Positions 29,947 through 37,429 of a DNA stretch of 64,000 nt are shown here, piece by piece; positions within the stretch are counted from its first letter, which is position 1, and each line of letters opens with the position of its first letter. The DNA lies in the NCBI GenBank assembly GCA_043825775.1, contig JBDRRK010000012.1, positions 129,237 through 193,236 of the forward strand, read 5' to 3'. Below the pieces are notes generated by a model that was not told where the DNA came from, did not search any database, and saw only the letters and a program-made list of their open reading frames with translations. The DNA comes from an archaeon (GTDB lineage: Archaea > Nanobdellota > Nanobdellia > SCGC-AAA011-G17 > GW2011-AR17). Both the position numbers and the translations under genes were made by a program.

Positions 29947-30777
29947 TTAGGGATTTAAAAGTGTATCTAATGGGCTTTTCACGTTGAGTAGTTTAGGAGT
30001 TGCTAAGTGAACATAGATCATTGTTGTTTTTGGACTTTCATGCCCTAGTAGGTTTTGTACTGTTTGTAAATCATAATTATTTTCAATTAAGTGTGTTGCA
30101 AATGAATGTCTTAATGTGTGAGGATGGACATTTTTTGTTAATTTTGCTTTTTTTGCTGCTTTTTTTATTATTACTTGTATTGTTCTTACTGAAATATGTT
30201 TTCTTTGTCCTTTGAATAGATAATTTTCAGGTTCTAGATTGTTTTCTTCTATATGTTGTTTTATTTTTTTATTTAGTTTTTTTGCGATTATGAACATTCT
30301 GTCTTTGTTGCCTTTTCCTTGTCTCACCCACCCAAAATTGTTTTTAAGTTCAAGGTGATTTACTTTTAATTTTGTTACTTCACTAACCCTTAATCCTGCT
30401 GAGTATAGAAGCTCAATCATTAGTTTATGTTTTTTGTTTTTTATTGCATTTAATAATAAGATTACTTCTTCTTGTGTTAATACTGTTGGTAGAATGTTTT
30501 TTGTTCTTGCTGGTTGTATTTCTAGTACATATTGTTTGTTTAGAATGTTTTTTAGTGTAAACTTTATTGCTTGCAATTGTAGATTTAATGTACTTTCAGA
30601 TATATTTGTTAGTGATAAGTTGTATAAATAATCTTTTATGTCTTTTTTTGTTATCTTTTTTGGTTCTTTTTGACATTTTTTAAGAAATTGTTTTATTGCA
30701 TAAGTATATGATTTAATTGTTTTAGGACTGTATTTTCTTCTTATCAATTCTTTTTGCATTTTATAGATTAAATCCAT
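29947..30777 (-). CDS. tyrosine site-specific recombinase (XerA/integrase family)
   Basis: C-terminal catalytic region HPHTLRHSFATHLIENNYDLQTVQNLLGHESPKTTMIYVHL with the R...HxxR...Y tetrad. Host-like AT-rich composition. Sits exactly at the core/accessory junction. Confidence 0.85.
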   Translation of the reverse strand: MDLIYKMQKELIRRKYSPKTIKSYTYAIKQFLKKCQKEPKKITKKDIKDYLYNLSLTNISESTLNLQLQAIKFTLKNILNKQYVLEIQPARTKNILPTVLTQEEVILLLNAIKNKKHKLMIELLYSAGLRVSEVTKLKVNHLELKNNFGWVRQGKGNKDRMFIIAKKLNKKIKQHIEENNLEPENYLFKGQRKHISVRTIQVIIKKAAKKAKLTKNVHPHTLRHSFATHLIENNYDLQTVQNLLGHESPKTTMIYVHLATPKLLNVKSPLDTLLNP

Positions 30778-31079
30778 ATTATTTATTATAAAAATAGTGT
30801 TAATAAGGTCTTATGTAGGAATTCCGGAAATCTTTCGGTAGTAACAGAAAATATAATTGTGAAGAGTTGTTTTTTGTGAGATAAAGGCTCCAGGGTGTGA
30901 ATTATGGAGACTTGCGTATATTAGGAGTTGTATACAATTAATTTTCTCCCTCCCTTTTCTTAAAATCCTTAAAATTTGAGAAATTATGGAGTTCAGTCTG
31001 TATCTTCTAAGTTATGGTCAACAGTCTATCTTTCCCACCCCGAAAATTAACTCTGCGTCGGCTCCGCCTCCTTGTCCTT

Positions 31080-31113
31080 CCCTTCGGTCAGGAGTATCCA
31101 ACATCGTTGGACG
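31080..31113. repeat. imperfect 34-bp direct repeat, copy 1 (contains palindrome TCCAAC-ATC-GTTGGA)
   Basis: cccttcggtcaggagtatccaacatcgttggacg, with a second copy at 31514-31547 (26/34 identical). A pyrimidine-rich ~25 bp upstream is also similar between the two copies. Confidence 0.6.
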
Positions 31114-31116
31114 AAA

Positions 31117-31130
31117 TAATAAACTGACCC
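31117..31130. repeat. 14-bp perfect inverted repeat, left arm (taataaactgaccc)
   Basis: Exact reverse complement of 31472-31485 (gggtcagtttatta). The two arms bracket the MazG-like gene. Confidence 0.7.
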
Positions 31131-31441
31131 TATTCAATTCCATCTAAATAGATTTTTTTAGAAAAAGTACCTCTTTCATAAGCTTTGTTTCTTCTAACTT
31201 CTTCTAATTCATTAATTGGAACACCATAGAAATCAGCTAATGCATACACAACTTCCATAACATCTGCCAATTCATTTATATCCTTTGCATCCCTAAGTTC
31301 AGCAATTTCCTCATCAAGTTTCCTCCAAAGTTCTGTTTCAAGTTCTGTATCATCCGCAAGAATATGTGTGAGGGGAGTTCTTCCACTTTCACTGATGATT
31401 TTTGGAATTCTATCTCTTACTAGTTTATTTGCCATAATCAA
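31130..31441 (-). CDS. MazG-like nucleotide pyrophosphohydrolase (all-alpha NTP-PPase)
   Basis: LVRDRIPKII ... EELADVMEVVYALA pattern of small MazG/HisE-like pyrophosphatases, at 103 aa. Confidence 0.6.
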   Translation of the reverse strand: MIMANKLVRDRIPKIISESGRTPLTHILADDTELETELWRKLDEEIAELRDAKDINELADVMEVVYALADFYGVPINELEEVRRNKAYERGTFSKKIYLDGIE

Positions 31442-31471
31442 AAGTTTAAAACTATATTTTATATGTCTTTC

Positions 31472-31485
31472 GGGTCAGTTTATTA
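31472..31485. repeat. 14-bp perfect inverted repeat, right arm
   Basis: gggtcagtttatta, partner of 31117-31130. Confidence 0.7.
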
Positions 31486-31513
31486 CTCTCCTTCACTTCG
31501 TTCAGTCGCCCTT

Positions 31514-31547
31514 CCTTTCAGTCAGGGTCGTCCAACACCGTTGGGCG
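31514..31547. repeat. imperfect 34-bp direct repeat, copy 2
   Basis: cctttcagtcagggtcgtccaacaccgttgggcg. Confidence 0.6.
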
Positions 31548-31561
31548 CAATTGGAAAATAA

Positions 31562-31774
31562 CTATCTTCTTATTCTTGGTCTCATTAATTCTTCGAGGTT
31601 GTCTTCAGCAAGTCCACGCAATATTGCACAAGTAGTTCTTCTTTTAGTAATATCTAACCTTCTTTTGTCTGAAACTACTTCTGGAACCACAGGATTTATA
31701 CCAGAATTTGCGGGTCTATAGCCAACCTCATAGTCACACAATTGCTCTTCTTTTGTAGAATAATCTGTTGTCAT
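31562..31774 (-). CDS. hypothetical small protein (internal-Met start of track ORF 31562..31957)
   Basis: The upstream part of the track ORF would run through the promoter element of the divergent gene, so the shorter MTTDYSTKEEQL... form is more plausible. Confidence 0.3.
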   Translation of the reverse strand: MTTDYSTKEEQLCDYEVGYRPANSGINPVVPEVVSDKRRLDITKRRTTCAILRGLAEDNLEELMRPRIRR

Positions 31775-31913
31775 GGGTTTAAGAAAGTCCTTGACATTAA
31801 TAATATTTGTTATTTTCCAACTGTCCAGTCGCTTCGCTCCTCGCCCAACACCCCTTTTACGACTTTTCTCGCCATAAAATATGGATTTTCTGAAAAAAAA
31901 TACCGCCTTAATA

Positions 31914-31938
31914 CACTGTCCGAAACCCGCCTTTAAAA
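31914..31938 (+). promoter_or_regulatory. archaeal BRE/TATA promoter, island family copy 1 (ccgaaacccgcctttaaaa)
   Basis: BRE-like CGAAA immediately 5' of an A/T-rich TATA box, ~35 nt upstream of ATG 31973. A GAGGAGG Shine-Dalgarno lies in between. Confidence 0.6.
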
Positions 31939-31972
31939 TGCGGAAAACACAGGACATGTGAGGAGGAAAAAG

Positions 31973-32356
31973 ATGAGAGGCACTGTTTATGACAAGATGA
32001 GGGTTTTGAAAGAAGGCCTGAAAAAGGAGTTCAAGTGGCTGAAAGATAGGGAGATGTTTGGGGCAATGTCAAAGCTAAGTTCATGGCATTACCCAAATAA
32101 AAGAACCAAGACAATGAAGCTGACAAATCAGGAGGCAATGATCTACGAGTTTCTGTTGAAGAACAACTATAATCCTTCAACCTGCTACAAGTGGATGCTT
32201 GCCTGCTGTACAAACGAGGATCTGCAGAAAAAGCTGATGAAAGGAGAAATCAGCATGAAGAAAGCAATACAGCAACCTTATGGCAAACTCTCGCAGACAG
32301 AGCAGGAATTCTTGTACCAGATAAAATTATGCATTAAAAAATATGTAATAAGGTGA
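31973..32356 (+). CDS. hypothetical protein (first gene of the integrase operon; track ORF starts at GTG 31958)
   Basis: The ATG at 31973 is preceded by GAGGAGG. Visibly G+C-richer codon usage than the host genes. Confidence 0.45.
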   Translation: MRGTVYDKMRVLKEGLKKEFKWLKDREMFGAMSKLSSWHYPNKRTKTMKLTNQEAMIYEFLLKNNYNPSTCYKWMLACCTNEDLQKKLMKGEISMKKAIQQPYGKLSQTEQEFLYQIKLCIKKYVIR

Positions 32357-33183
32357 TAAACATGAAAACAAAATATGCACAGGACAGAGGGGAGAACAAG
32401 CCCTTTACTTGTTCAAAGAAAAAGCTTCCCTATGTTCCCACAAGGGAGGAAATCTTGAAACTATTGGCTTATGCAGATGATGTTAGATTGGGATTTTCAA
32501 TATTTGTCAGTGTTTTTCAAGGTTTACGAATTGGGGAAACTGCGAAATTAAAATGGAGCAATGTTGACTTAATTAATGGCGAAATAAGAATTATTGATGG
32601 AAAAAATACAAGAAGGTATAAGTCAGGCTATGGAAAAGACAGGATAGTTCCGATAAATGAGATGTTCTTGTATATATGGAAGGCTTGGAGATTAATGAAT
32701 CCAGATCAGGAGTATGTTCTTCCAAGTGATGATAGGTTTGGAGTAAGGGCTGATTACAAGAATATAGTTAGACAGATACAGAAGAAATTGTTTAGTTCCC
32801 TGAAAAAAGCTGAATTGTTACAAGTTGATTATTATCAAAAGGATGGCAAGCCAAGATACAGATATCACACGCATTCTTTTAGGCATGTTTGTGGCACTAA
32901 CTTAAGAAGAGCTGGAATGAGGATTGAGGATATTCGAGATTTTCTTGGGCATGATGACATTGATACGACACAGGTTTACACTGAATTAACTAAAGATGAT
33001 CTAAGAGAAGTAAGCCATACTGCTTATGCTTATCCTAAAAGCAGTTTAGGATTACCTAAAGTGGAGATAAGTGTTGACAAGGAAACCTTGCTTTTACAGA
33101 GAGAGATTATTGAGAAGCAGTTGGAATTGGCAAAAATGCAGATGATTGGAAAAAGGGAGGTTGAAATCTATGCGGATATGTAA
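32353..33183 (+). CDS. tyrosine recombinase / integrase (second copy)
   Basis: HTHSFRHVCGTNLRRAGMRIEDIRDFLGHDDIDTTQVYTEL catalytic region. Overlaps the upstream ORF by 4 nt. Confidence 0.85.
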   Translation: MINMKTKYAQDRGENKPFTCSKKKLPYVPTREEILKLLAYADDVRLGFSIFVSVFQGLRIGETAKLKWSNVDLINGEIRIIDGKNTRRYKSGYGKDRIVPINEMFLYIWKAWRLMNPDQEYVLPSDDRFGVRADYKNIVRQIQKKLFSSLKKAELLQVDYYQKDGKPRYRYHTHSFRHVCGTNLRRAGMRIEDIRDFLGHDDIDTTQVYTELTKDDLREVSHTAYAYPKSSLGLPKVEISVDKETLLLQREIIEKQLELAKMQMIGKREVEIYADM

Positions 33184-33475
33184 CAACAAAAGGTATGAAA
33201 ATGAATTTGTCAAGAAGATGATTGATGAAGGACATCATTGTGAGAGAGTAGCTGGTAGTGGTTCAGGTAGAAATGCAGTTTGTGATTGTGTTTTATTTAA
33301 GGAAGGCAAGGTGTACTTAGTTGAGGTCAAGGCAACAAAAGAGAAAAAATTCTATTTTAGGGCTGGAATTAAACAGCAGTTGGACATTATGTCGAATATT
33401 GCAAGAAAGTCGAACGTTGGGGCTTTATTGGCCATCAAATTCAAACACAGAGGCTGGGAGATCATGGAATTATGA
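33170..33475 (+). CDS. Hjc-like Holliday junction resolvase (PD-(D/E)xK)
   Basis: E-x(n)-D-x(n)-EVK arrangement: HCERVAGSGSG ... DCVLFKEGKVYLVEVKATKE. Small size (~100 aa) matches archaeal Hjc/Hje. Confidence 0.55.
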   Translation: MRICNNKRYENEFVKKMIDEGHHCERVAGSGSGRNAVCDCVLFKEGKVYLVEVKATKEKKFYFRAGIKQQLDIMSNIARKSNVGALLAIKFKHRGWEIMEL

Positions 33476-33933
33476 AGATTCGTGATAGATTATTGGAGCT
33501 TTTGCAGGATTCTCCCCTGACTACAAAGGAAATACAGACAAATATTCCAGACAAGAGTAACAGGGTTTTAGCAGCAACTGTTAGCAATAATCCTGAGGTG
33601 TTTATTAGATTGGAGATGGGATTGGTTGGGTTGAAGAATAGGGATGAGCATTTGGTTACAGGGAAGAAGATAAGGCACGATAAATATTGTTTGTATAAGA
33701 AAATAGCTAATTTGTTAATTGAAAGGGAGAGAAGATTGGAAGAGTTGTATGATGCTCTTCCTGATGAGAAGATGGTTTCTATTAGGGCAAGTGTTACTCA
33801 GCATCCTGAATTGTTTTTTAGAATTGAACCTGGTGTTATTGGTAGAAGAGGAAGGGATGAGTATTTAATTGAGAAGTATAGGAGAGCAAGGAATTCTACT
33901 AAGATTCGTAGACCTAGGTTGGTGAATAGGTAA
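33472..33933 (+). CDS. protein with two tandem ~50-aa repeat domains (winged-helix-like)
   Basis: Internal duplication: LTTKEIQTNIPDKSNRVLAATVSNNPEVFIRLEMGLVGLKNRDEHL and LPDEKMVSIRASVTQHPELFFRIEPGVIGRRGRDEYL. Confidence 0.4.
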   Translation: MKIRDRLLELLQDSPLTTKEIQTNIPDKSNRVLAATVSNNPEVFIRLEMGLVGLKNRDEHLVTGKKIRHDKYCLYKKIANLLIERERRLEELYDALPDEKMVSIRASVTQHPELFFRIEPGVIGRRGRDEYLIEKYRRARNSTKIRRPRLVNR

Positions 33934-34689
33934 TTATTTTTTAGCTTGTTTCCATAAACTATCAAATAATTCCTTAAACTGTTGTGAATATGAAATATTT
34001 TCTATAAATATACAATTAGGTTCATCGAAATTGAATAAGAGTGTTATGTTGCCACAAACCATAAAATTGGATTTATCAGTTCCTTTGTGGTATCTGTATT
34101 CTTTATCATAGTTTTTGAAACTTTTTCCTTTCCTTTTTTCCTTTCCTTCCTTTGTAATAGAAGTCATGATAACTTTGGTTTTAATCCCTTTCTTTTTTGT
34201 AAGATCCATATATTTAGGCCATAAAAGTACAATATCTCTTTCTTTGCTATCATTTGCCCCATAAAGGTAGATTATTGACTTTTTATCTAATTGTTCTATG
34301 AAACTAAATAAAGCACTTCTGATTCCTTCAATACTTTCATAGACTTTCACATTACAAGATTCTTTTTTTGAATTAAATTCTTCTTCCAATTCAGGTAATT
34401 GTTTGAGGAAGGCACTTTCTTCTTGTTCAATACTAAGCTTTTTTTGTTTGATATAATCAGATATCTTTTTTGGATTTTGGGGAATATAATATTTTATATT
34501 ATTTTTAATAACAAAAGAGATTATTCCTTTGTTTGTTAACGAATCTAGAACTTGGTATATTTTGCCTGATTTAAATTTGGATTCTTTGATTATTTTACTT
34601 ACTTTTGATTCTCCTATCTTGATTAATGTAAGATAGATTATTGCTTCATTTCTTGTTAATCCAAATTTCATTAAAATTTCAGGTTTCAT
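33934..34689 (-). CDS. TrmB-family transcriptional regulator
   Basis: N-terminal HTH (LTRNEAIIYLTLIKIGESKVSKI) plus a C-terminal domain. Paralog of 36674-37429. Confidence 0.6.
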   Translation of the reverse strand: MKPEILMKFGLTRNEAIIYLTLIKIGESKVSKIIKESKFKSGKIYQVLDSLTNKGIISFVIKNNIKYYIPQNPKKISDYIKQKKLSIEQEESAFLKQLPELEEEFNSKKESCNVKVYESIEGIRSALFSFIEQLDKKSIIYLYGANDSKERDIVLLWPKYMDLTKKKGIKTKVIMTSITKEGKEKRKGKSFKNYDKEYRYHKGTDKSNFMVCGNITLLFNFDEPNCIFIENISYSQQFKELFDSLWKQAKK

Positions 34690-36673: not shown

Positions 36674-37429
36674 GTGTATATGTATAAAGAAAAACTACAA
36701 GAATTAGGATTAACTCAAGGAGAGGCAAAGGTTTATGAGGCTTTATTAGTCTTAGGTCCTTCAACAGTTGGTCCGATTGTTAAGAAATCTAGTGTTGCTT
36801 ATTCAAATATCTATGAAATCCTTAACAGACTATTGGATAAAGGTTTAGTCAGTTTTATTGTAAAGGAAAAAACAAAATACTTTCAAGCTGAGGATATCAA
36901 TAGGATTAATGATTATTTAATTGCTCAAGAAAAAGAATTAAATGCACGAAAGCAAACTTTTAATGAACTTCAACCCAAATTAGAGAAATTAAAAGGAGCA
37001 GATAAAAAGAAAGAAGAAGCAGAGGTCTTTATTGGTGAAAAAGGACTTATGACAGCTTATGAGAAACTAATGAAAGGTTCTAATAAAAAAGATCAAGGTT
37101 ACTTTTTTTATGTTCATGATGTAGAGTATTATGAAAGAGCTGAGAAATTTTATATTAAATCTTGGCACATTCTTAGGGAATATAAAAACAAATGGAAAGG
37201 AATAAGCACTGAAGATTTTAAGAAAACTAAATTAGCTAAAAAATATCCTCCTTTTGTTAATCAAAGATATGTTTCTTTTCCTGTTCCAAGTAATATTGAT
37301 TTTATTGGAGATAAAGTTTTGATTACAACATGGAAAGAAAATCCAGTTGGGATATTAATTCATTCTAAGGAGATAGTAGAAAGTTATAAGTCTTACTTTG
37401 ATTCTGTTTGGAAGTTGGCTAAAAAATAA
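36674..37429 (+). CDS. TrmB-family transcriptional regulator (paralog)
   Basis: LTQGEAKVYEALLVLGPSTVGPI HTH. Same 251-aa length and conserved C-terminal ...SVWKLAKK as 33934-34689. Confidence 0.6.
   Translation: MYMYKEKLQELGLTQGEAKVYEALLVLGPSTVGPIVKKSSVAYSNIYEILNRLLDKGLVSFIVKEKTKYFQAEDINRINDYLIAQEKELNARKQTFNELQPKLEKLKGADKKKEEAEVFIGEKGLMTAYEKLMKGSNKKDQGYFFYVHDVEYYERAEKFYIKSWHILREYKNKWKGISTEDFKKTKLAKKYPPFVNQRYVSFPVPSNIDFIGDKVLITTWKENPVGILIHSKEIVESYKSYFDSVWKLAKK

Follow-up and report, generated by a model that had tools for sequence, protein, structure and literature searches.

A MazG-like gene as the probable cargo of a head-to-tail cassette array next to a tyrosine recombinase-Hjc operon in a nanoarchaeal genome

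The 64,000-nt stretch of archaeal DNA analyzed here (hereafter the window; positions 129,237 to 193,236 of contig JBDRRK010000012.1, assembly GCA_043825775.1, Nanobdellota) contains a small gene for a MazG-like NTP pyrophosphohydrolase that is flanked by repeats and located close to a gene for a tyrosine recombinase of the XerA type. This gene is probably the cargo of one of three cassettes that lie head to tail between xerA and a second recombinase operon, ORF127-Int2-Hjc-ORF153, and that were inserted by site-specific recombination. The locus is best read as an integron-like cassette platform with an unusual site form and an unusual, non-IntI candidate recombinase. The anatomy of the cassettes, their recurrence beside orthologous operons, the covariation of their ends and a strain polymorphism located at the predicted crossover were all observed computationally. 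The sequence of the locus is identical in a Logan contig from SRR26275510.

The repeats around the MazG-like open reading frame (ORF) were first pointed out in a sequence-only reading of the window. The 14-bp perfect inverted repeat that it described, TAATAAACTGACCC (31117-31130) / GGGTCAGTTTATTA (31472-31485), is present, brackets the MazG-like ORF and is unique in the window even when 2 mismatches are tolerated in the repeat search. The GC-rich blocks outside the two arms are indeed direct repeats, with 72% identity over 60 nt (31076-31135 vs 31510-31569), including the reported 26 identical positions in the 34-nt core. A nhmmer profile made from both copies extends the similarity to ~113 nt and identifies only these two full copies in the 64-kb window. 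The palindrome TCCAAC-N3-GTTGG, noticed in each block, is found at 2 places in the window, with 0.4 expected, and nowhere else in it. The enclosed ORF encodes a genuine small NTP pyrophosphohydrolase, as indicated by the match to PF12643 and 27 homologues, and the adjoining gene (29947-30777, minus strand) is a real tyrosine recombinase gene, an archaeal xerA according to the NCBIfam equivalog. Four further features had escaped that reading, namely another cognate inverted repeat that brackets the next gene (31548-31562 / 31809-31823, 14/15), the arms of which hold the same place relative to the GC-rich blocks as those of the 14-bp repeat, a partial third block (31824-31852), a gene-less third unit (30927-31102) and the second tyrosine recombinase operon (31973-33933). 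The array consists of the following features.

30927-31102, plus strand, cassette 0, gene-less, with the ends GTTGTATAC ... GTATCCAAC (8/9 complementary)
30937-30946 and 31042-31050, inner arms of cassette 0, ATTAATTTTC / GAAAATTAA (9/9)
31094-31114, junction 1, GTATCCAAC-ATC-GTTGGACGA, the 3' end of cassette 0 and the 5' end of the MazG cassette; core of the first block
31106-31536, plus strand, MazG cassette, with the terminal inverted repeat GTTGGACGA ... TCGTCCAAC (9/9)
31117-31130 and 31472-31485, arms of the MazG cassette (14/14)
31130-31435, minus strand, MazG-like NTP pyrophosphohydrolase gene, 101 aa from the ATG at 31435; cassette cargo
31486-31527, spacer of the MazG cassette, GC-rich and CTYCG-rich
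31528-31548, junction 2, TCGTCCAAC-ACC-GTTGGGCGC, the 3' end of the MazG cassette and the 5' end of the ORF71 cassette; core of the second block
31540-31849, plus strand, ORF71 cassette, with the terminal inverted repeat GTTGGGCG ... CGCCCAAC (8/8)
31548-31562 and 31809-31823, arms of the ORF71 cassette (14/15)
31562-31777, minus strand, ORF71; cassette cargo
31850-31972, plus strand, constant attI-like end, ACC-CCTTTTACGACTTTTCTCGCCATAAAAT..., up to the start of ORF127

The complementarity of these sequences extends across the genes. Junction 1 in place is self-complementary over 6 bp only, and its right half pairs 9/9 with 31528-31536. Junction 2 in place (CGTCCAAC/GTTGGGCG) is 7/8 self-complementary; its left half pairs 9/9 with 31106-31114, and its right half (GTTGGGCG) pairs 8/8, without a mismatch, with 31842-31849, which forms the left half (CGCCCAAC) of the partial third block. 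Because the halves and the arms find their partners across each gene and not inside a block, the sequences flanking a gene on either side belong together, and the mobile unit corresponds to 31106-31536. Cassette 0 and the MazG cassette are separated by 3 nt (ATC, 31103-31105), and the MazG and ORF71 cassettes are likewise exactly 3 nt apart. The general form of a cassette is GTTnnnnn(n) - arm - cargo - arm' - GC-rich CTYCG-rich spacer - (n)nnnnnAAC, and the site of the MazG cassette reads GGGTCAGTTTATTA...TCGTCCAAC-ACC-GTTGGACGAAATAATAAACTGACCC. The direct repeats are alike because the AAC/GTT core and related spacer modules are common to the ends of all cassettes. Thus, the proposal that the blocks are att-type sites of a small excisable cassette holds in outline, except that they are not copies of one site flanking one element but chimeric junctions in a tandem array of three cassettes, with the crossover in the center of the TCCAAC-N3-GTTGG palindrome, between AAC and GTT. 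The invertible cassette that had also been considered does not agree with the direct orientation of the junction cores. The suggested link to a tyrosine recombinase survives as well, but the enzyme that is consistently tied to such arrays elsewhere is encoded in the second operon and not by the adjacent xerA.

The array together with the operon (30900-33950) has 37% GC, compared to 30% for the remainder of the window, and the two cargo genes, mazG and ORF71, both face away from the Int2 operon. The MazG protein matches PF12643 with E = 1.9e-5 and 25.2 bits, slightly under the cut-off of 27 bits; its 27 homologues, with up to 57% identity, are found in ordinary chromosomal neighborhoods elsewhere, without cassettes.

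When the two ends of a cassette are joined in a reconstructed circular junction, the MazG cassette folds at -19.7 kcal/mol (z -6.1, with 0/200 shuffles as good) and the ORF71 cassette at -17.2 kcal/mol (z -6.6). The seven reconstructed circular junctions, folded as single-stranded DNA, range from -17 to -28 kcal/mol, with z from -3.7 to -9.7 and 0/200 shuffles for each, and the blocks in place are on par with shuffles on both strands (z -0.4 to -0.8). A scanner for the two-tier signature recovered both ORF-bearing cassettes of the window, adjacent and with a 3-nt gap; among 200 shuffled windows, none contained an adjacent pair, and hits with arms of 14 nt or more numbered 0.17 per window. Covariation was analyzed in 10 cassettes from three genomes, the window and the related loci L032 and L041. 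The AAC/GTT triplets are invariant, all of the 6 other stem positions covary and 95.6% are paired; 27 double changes were observed vs 8.4 +/- 2.1 in shuffles, with 0/500 shuffles reaching the observed number. The polarity is identical in all ten cassettes, with the GC-rich spacer on the operon side. The CTYCG motif occurs in the spacers at 17.9 per kb vs a background of 0.3-0.85 per kb, a 20-60-fold enrichment that is strand-specific (15 vs 1), and in the window it clusters nowhere but in the array. Several spacer modules, namely CTCTCCTTCACTTCGTTC, CGTTGCACT and CCTGCGTCATAC, are common to different genomes.

The ORF127-Int2-Hjc(-ORF153) operon is conserved across Woese/Nanoarchaeota loci, which were gathered via Int2 homologues. 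In L032, Int2 is 82% identical to that of the window and XerA only 55%, without any other synteny between the two genomes. Genes for an EamA transporter, ORF99 and ORF93 lie between xerA and the operon of L032, each in a cassette built like those of the window, in which the terminal repeats match 9/9 and the arms measure 12-14 nt; two of these cassettes are 3 nt apart, and their cargo is unrelated to that of the window. We also observe a gene-less hairpin of ~105 nt between cassettes of this locus (L032:5534-5641; GAATATGCG...CGCATATTC enclosing ATATTTGCTGGTGAT...ATCACCAGCAAACAT; z -4.35); its GC-rich part is on the side opposite to that in every other cassette and, accordingly, the element might represent an empty cassette in inverted orientation or a remnant similar to attC. 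In L041 (Int2 70% identical), the operon is preceded by at least four cassettes, which range from 404 to 3464 nt and include one with four genes and another with a Schlafen-like helicase. These cassettes are parted not by 3 nt but by repeated hairpins of ~75 nt, and the junctions (87-92 nt), which include the flanking AAC and GTT, fold as an R box, a bulge, an 8-11-bp L box and a loop, resembling canonical attC sites in layout and fold. The L041 sequence ACATAAC-AAG-GATTTAACGG...CGTTAAATC-ACGAT-GTTATAC resembles the published archaeal ACATAAC-AAATC...CATG-GTTATGG.

No arrays were found in four Woesearchaeal xerA loci without Int2 (L003-L006), and a XerA-based locus search retrieved relatives with 52-54% identity that showed neither arrays nor blocks. 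Int2-based scans of viral and metagenome contigs yielded no useful loci, and exact-pattern scans for the blocks in such contigs gave no match; the scan of viral contigs for CCTTCGGNACGTTGCACT gave a single chance match in a coding region of a 55% GC phage.

The array ends in the same way next to each operon. The sequence AACACCC(C/G) and the following ~120 nt are kept upstream of ORF127 in six loci, including cassette-less ones (alignment A1), and to the left of the AAC|ACC-CC(C/G) boundary the sequence is locus-specific in all six. A constant attI beside the integrase gene, where cassettes accumulate, is a hallmark of integrons, and the boundary upstream of ORF127-Int2 has this property. The loci L034 and L035, which encode the same Int2 protein in DNA that is 99% identical, are identical from TAACACCCCC onward and unrelated directly upstream of it, and the point of divergence is exactly upstream of TAAC|ACCCCC, the predicted crossover. 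This difference is the sole direct sign of cassette turnover, and it rests on the last 25 nt of a contig. About half of the operon-bearing contigs (L034, L035, L038, L039, L040, L042, L043 and L033) end within ~530 nt upstream of ORF127; such ends fit assembly breaks at a strain-variable or repeat-rich array and prove nothing. The publicly annotated 131-aa ORF on the minus strand of the window (31562-31957) is probably over-extended because its ~60 first codons overlap the non-coding region that is conserved 5' of ORF127 in the six loci; the ATG at 31777 yields a 71-aa protein that fits within the ORF71 cassette.

The recombinase genes on the two sides of the array and the other genes of the operon are as follows.

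29947-30777, minus strand, gene for a XerA-type tyrosine recombinase of 276 aa, located on the outer flank of the array
31973-32356, plus strand, ORF127, the first gene of the operon; all-alpha protein
32353-33183, plus strand, Int2, catalytic-domain-only tyrosine recombinase (PF00589 at 1.5e-23)
33170-33475, plus strand, Hjc-type Holliday junction resolvase (PF01870 at 6e-14, 52 bits, cut-off 21), overlapping the 3' end of Int2
33472-33933, plus strand, ORF153, the last gene of the operon

The catalytic residues of Int2 (R59, K84, H174, R177, H200 and Y209) are invariant in 26 homologues, and the family comprises ~100 clusters from Woese/Nanoarchaeota with up to 82% identity. The nearest solved relatives are XerA (4a8e, 5hxy) and VchIntI4 (2a3v), and the alignment is confined to their catalytic domains, which indicates that Int2 contains neither an N-terminal core-binding domain nor the IntI-specific insert. 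Int2 aligns with IntI4 (2a3v) at positions 22-90 and 173-212 only, with 82 residues between the two segments (99 in IntI4 and ~66 in XerA), and scores 59.7 bits on the integron-integrase model TIGR02249 (cut-off 265) and 38.9 bits on NF011946 (cut-off 435). Hence Int2 is not an integrase of the IntI clade with the additional domain near patch III that defines integrons. The XerA protein of the window scores 229.4 bits on NF040815 (recomb_XerA_Arch; cut-off 220) and 208.9 bits on TIGR02249, under the cut-off of 265, in two stretches that skip the IntI-specific insert.

Hjc follows Int2 in all loci seen. The stop codon of ORF127 overlaps the start of Int2 (GTGA, 32353-32356) and the start of Hjc overlaps the 3' end of Int2 (33170-33183), suggesting translational coupling of the operon. 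The orthologues of ORF127, which form a family of small, ~130-aa proteins with 83 representative clusters, are 73-84% identical and invariably located directly upstream of Int2. The AlphaFold model of ORF127 has a pLDDT of 72, and no sequence, profile (Pfam), PDB or significant fold match was detected for this protein. The idea that ORF127 is the detached core-binding domain of the recombinase was abandoned, given that there is no profile similarity to the N-terminus of XerA and no Pfam, PDB or fold match, and that no long fusion proteins are present among the 83 family representatives. The ORF153 orthologues in L032, L034 and L040 are 65-83% identical; the protein contains an internal duplication (residues ~1-76 and ~74-149), and only sub-threshold hints of a winged helix were obtained for it. 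No att duplicates were found at the right end of the Int2 operon.

We infer the acting enzyme, the single- or double-stranded nature of the substrate and the order of acquisition from the arrangement of the sequences. Excision as a circle would bring the two ends of a cassette together, and they would form a two-tier hairpin or palindrome, with an inner stem of 8-13 bp that has a 3-nt loop and an outer stem of 9-19 bp with a one-sided bulge. Int2 would catalyze insertion and excision between this cassette site and the constant site AAC|ACC-CC(C/G)... located ~120 nt upstream of ORF127, perhaps assisted by ORF127, ORF153 and Hjc, and new cassettes would enter beside the operon, as they do at the attI of integrons. 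Recognition would depend on the AAC/GTT triplets and the folded or palindromic structure and not on the sequence of the stem, similarly to the recognition of attC by IntI. The CTYCG-rich bulge might serve as a binding platform for ORF127 or ORF153, and Hjc might finish the intermediate of single-strand exchange. Int2 is likely to be the acting recombinase, given that both the constant boundary and the L034/L035 polymorphism are found at the array end next to Int2 and that arrays are seen only at operon-bearing loci, the four operon-less xerA loci being array-free.

Integrons, the classic example of a system that stores and reshuffles accessory genes, are characterized by a single lineage of integrases (IntI) and a single kind of site (attC). 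The locus described here is similar to integrons in that a tyrosine recombinase gene is located beside a constant primary site and is accompanied by tandem cassettes with unrelated small accessory genes. Furthermore, the cassettes start with GTT... and end with the cognate ...AAC, only these triplets are conserved and the stems covary, and the sites have one orientation. In L041, the R''-spacer-L''-loop-L'-spacer-R' layout of the junctions resembles that of published archaeal attCs. The differences include the lack of the IntI-specific extra domain and the N-terminal core-binding domain in Int2, the co-encoded Hjc resolvase, ORF127 and ORF153, and the mixed orientation of the cassette genes, which number up to four per cassette and probably have their own promoters. 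The AAC and GTT of the window and L032 are 3 nt apart and located at the apex of the hairpin instead of its base, and a second stem with a one-sided GC-rich bulge lies on the gene side. A canonical attC, R''(RYYYAAC)-L''-variable loop-L'-R'(GTTRRRY), spans 57-141 nt and has the crossover in R'; the window junctions GTCCAAC/GTTGGAC and GCCCAAC/GTTGGGC match RYYYAAC/GTTRRRY but, being 3 nt apart and without an L box, depart from the canonical geometry. An alignment of nine published archaeal attCs recovered only the R box. Judged by the attI1 sequence (...CCTAAAAC-AAA-GTTAGGC), a simple attI site, which is double-stranded, would share the AAC-NNN-GTT geometry, and this is a lead and not a test; since the window junctions also fit this geometry, they are compatible with a single-stranded as well as a double-stranded substrate. 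The literature supports this sequence only insofar as the 13-mer AACAAAGTTAGGC occurs in five papers of mixed topic, one of them on class 1 integron cassettes.

The array also recalls the accretion of cis-mobilizable elements (CIMEs), in which integrase-less segments with direct att-type sites are stacked beside an integrase-encoding element. The units in the window are likewise integrase-less, with direct att-type sites, and located beside a recombinase-encoding element. Unlike CIMEs, the units described here are delimited by palindromes that are conserved in structure and variable in sequence, are as small as 176-431 nt and include no functions of integrative and conjugative elements (ICEs). 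Another parallel is with integrative mobile elements exploiting Xer (IMEX), such as the CTX phage, and the dif sites of Xer recombination. In this case too, integrase-less and presumably circular elements are arranged in tandem at one chromosomal site and folded hairpin sites are possibly used, and a Xer-family gene is adjacent to the array in two genomes. With the exchange of only one pair of strands, a step that resolves the junction would be needed (PMC3442271). The dif site consists of two 11-bp inverted arms and a 6-bp spacer and is conserved in sequence (PMC2958812, PMC8371274). The window-type junctions, in contrast, have variable arms of 8-13 bp around a 3-nt center, other xerA loci are array-free and the constant end is tied to the Int2 operon. 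A XerA-type recombinase is encoded in the window at 29947-30777, and action on these sites is only a candidate role for it.

Several observations weigh against the interpretation of the locus as a mobile cassette platform served by Int2. Mobility is deduced from comparative anatomy and one 25-nt polymorphism at the end of a contig, and the association of the arrays with Int2 arises in part by construction because the loci were sampled via Int2. Two Int2 operons, in L036 and L044, have no cassettes at all and abut an AspRS gene and a tRNA-like sequence, respectively. The scanner, which requires a perfect 8-nt inverted repeat, was used to locate or refine seven of the ten cassettes in the covariation set, and therefore the covariation test is partly circular; the head-to-tail tiling and the arms are evidence that is independent of this requirement. 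Unlike integron cassettes, which mostly carry single and co-oriented ORFs without promoters that are expressed from Pc, the cassettes described here contain genes in mixed orientation that apparently have their own promoters: EamA and ORF99 of L032 are on the plus strand and ORF93 is on the minus strand, and the four-gene cassette of L041 includes both orientations. Finally, by the rules that apply to integrons, the attC-like hairpins of L041, with AACAA on the plus strand, would place the integrase at the opposite end of the array, which in the window and L032 is occupied by xerA, in the canonical position and orientation of intI.

This last point leads to an alternative that we consider unlikely, namely that the same array is served by the adjacent XerA, either as an IntI-like integrase or through cassettes that exploit Xer, and that the Int2 operon merely marks the distal end or was inserted there. 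In both the window and L032, despite the lack of other synteny, a distance of 110-150 nt separates xerA from the outer array end, and transcription of the gene runs away from the array; XerA scores 209 bits on the integron-integrase model; PaXerA has been reported to bind stem-loop att sites (PMC8371274); and the AACAA criterion of published attCs, applied to the L041 hairpins, places the canonical integrase side away from Int2. The window and L032 also share a motif upstream of xerA (30822-30846 in the window, L032:4447-4470; CCGGAAATCTTTCGGTAGTAACAG / CCGAAAATCTTTCAAATAACAG) that is absent in L003-L006 and could be either a regulatory site of xerA or the far-end site of the array. Nevertheless, arrays are missing from four other Woesearchaeal xerA loci, and xerA is missing from three Int2 loci for which several kb of upstream sequence are available. 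The constant boundary of the array and the polymorphism between strains are located on the Int2 side and not on that of XerA, and the junctions lack the 11-6-11 geometry of dif (PMC2958812). Archaeal integrons with a canonical IntI, including the extra domain, and canonical attCs have been described, and only six IntIs were identified among 75 archaeal genomes with attC arrays, including Nanoarchaeota (Ghaly et al., 2022; PMC9668308). Such IntI-less attC arrays in Nanoarchaeota, together with the match of the L041 junctions to the published archaeal layout xxxTAAC-AAN-stem-loop-stem-NNNN-GTTAxxx, could indicate that the array is a decayed, immobile integron array of the ordinary kind, that is, a cluster of attC sites lacking integron integrases (CALIN), in which the R''-3 nt-R' junctions are attCs that have lost L''-loop-L' and the proximity of a recombinase is coincidental. 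This appears improbable considering that the terminal repeats of 8-13 bp and the arms of 9-19 bp are perfect or nearly so, contrary to decay, that the same attC-less junction form is present in two genomes, the window and L032, and that the array end is precisely kept relative to the Int2 operon, where near-identical strains differ.

The other explanations that had been offered for the repeats find even less support in the comparisons made here. A miniature inverted-repeat transposable element (MITE) or another transposon insertion, in which the MazG gene would be bounded by terminal inverted repeats and a target duplication, matches the succession of direct repeat, inverted repeat, gene, inverted repeat and direct repeat as well as the perfect terminal repeats of each cassette. 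The terminal repeats differ from cassette to cassette, though, such that no single transposase could recognize them, duplication of the flanking 3 nt is inconsistent, a transposase gene is lacking, and the elements occur only as head-to-tail arrays at one locus, with no dispersed copies in the 64 kb; shared terminal repeats, dispersal and target-site duplications, the marks of MITEs and insertion sequences, are thus all missing, and this origin is very improbable. A reading of the GC-rich blocks as repeated copies of a structured RNA, or else as a generic motif for regulation or termination, draws on their GC-richness in a 30% GC genome, the cTTCGg-like motifs and a small hairpin after the stop codon of mazG. 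It is hardly credible given that a search of Rfam 15 over 30700-32100 yielded only chance snoRNA-level hits at E above 2, with no match to the blocks even at E = 10, and nothing in L032, L041 and L044. Moreover, the blocks fold no better than shuffles, the complementarity spans the opposite sides of each gene and not one block, and the motif is absent elsewhere in the window. The upstream arm is located ~37 nt 5' of the mazG ATG, past an AT-rich likely promoter at 31445-31458 (identified by eye), and is probably outside the mRNA. Apart from this, the possibility that the blocks are a coding remnant (minus-strand frame RPT[MV]LD..) was dropped because the junction structure accounts for their similarity, and a tRNA search at the blocks found none.

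Some additional features were noticed around the operons. Directly upstream of the conserved ORF127-upstream region in L044 (8336-8470), there is a sequence that resembles a tRNA interrupted by a long internal insert (acceptor GCCAGCG...CGCTGGC, T-arm GCCGGTTCAAATCCGGC) that was called neither by ARAGORN nor by Rfam; the Int2 operon of this locus may be located at the 3' end of an intron-containing tRNA gene. Downstream of the operon in L036 (10709-16837), L041 (10580-18840) and L044 (10199-18849), a gene for an N6/N4 DNA methyltransferase is followed by defence-like genes that include UvrD-PDDEXK, Schlafen/AlbA_2, type I HsdR and DUF2779. In the window, the operon is directly followed by an AT-rich TrmB gene (33934-34689), and a second TrmB-family paralogue (36680-37426), 28% identical to the first, is encoded 2 kb further. 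The gene content of the window, which includes wyosine synthesis, aIF5A, FtsZ and XerA, assigns the DNA, together with its closest relatives, to the Woese/Nanoarchaeota within the DPANN archaea.

We found no paper on cassette arrays beside an Int-Hjc operon in a literature search that was incomplete and does not prove novelty. All of the evidence is computational and derives from three arrays and one junction polymorphism. It is conceivable, although less likely than not, that Woese/Nanoarchaeota carry a second kind of integron, built from a Xer-like recombinase that consists of the catalytic domain only, Hjc and two further proteins, with structure-defined AAC/GTT sites and, as part of the same possibility, a minimal apex-crossover form of the site that is invisible to attC-based searches. 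The site form of the window and L032 would escape current integron finders. If this interpretation is correct, the IntI-less attC arrays of DPANN archaea would gain a candidate enzyme, and integron-type recombination would not be bound to the IntI lineage. If confirmed, the findings would widen the repertoire of enzymes and sites of gene-capture systems and provide a small, testable recombination system from organisms with minimal genomes.

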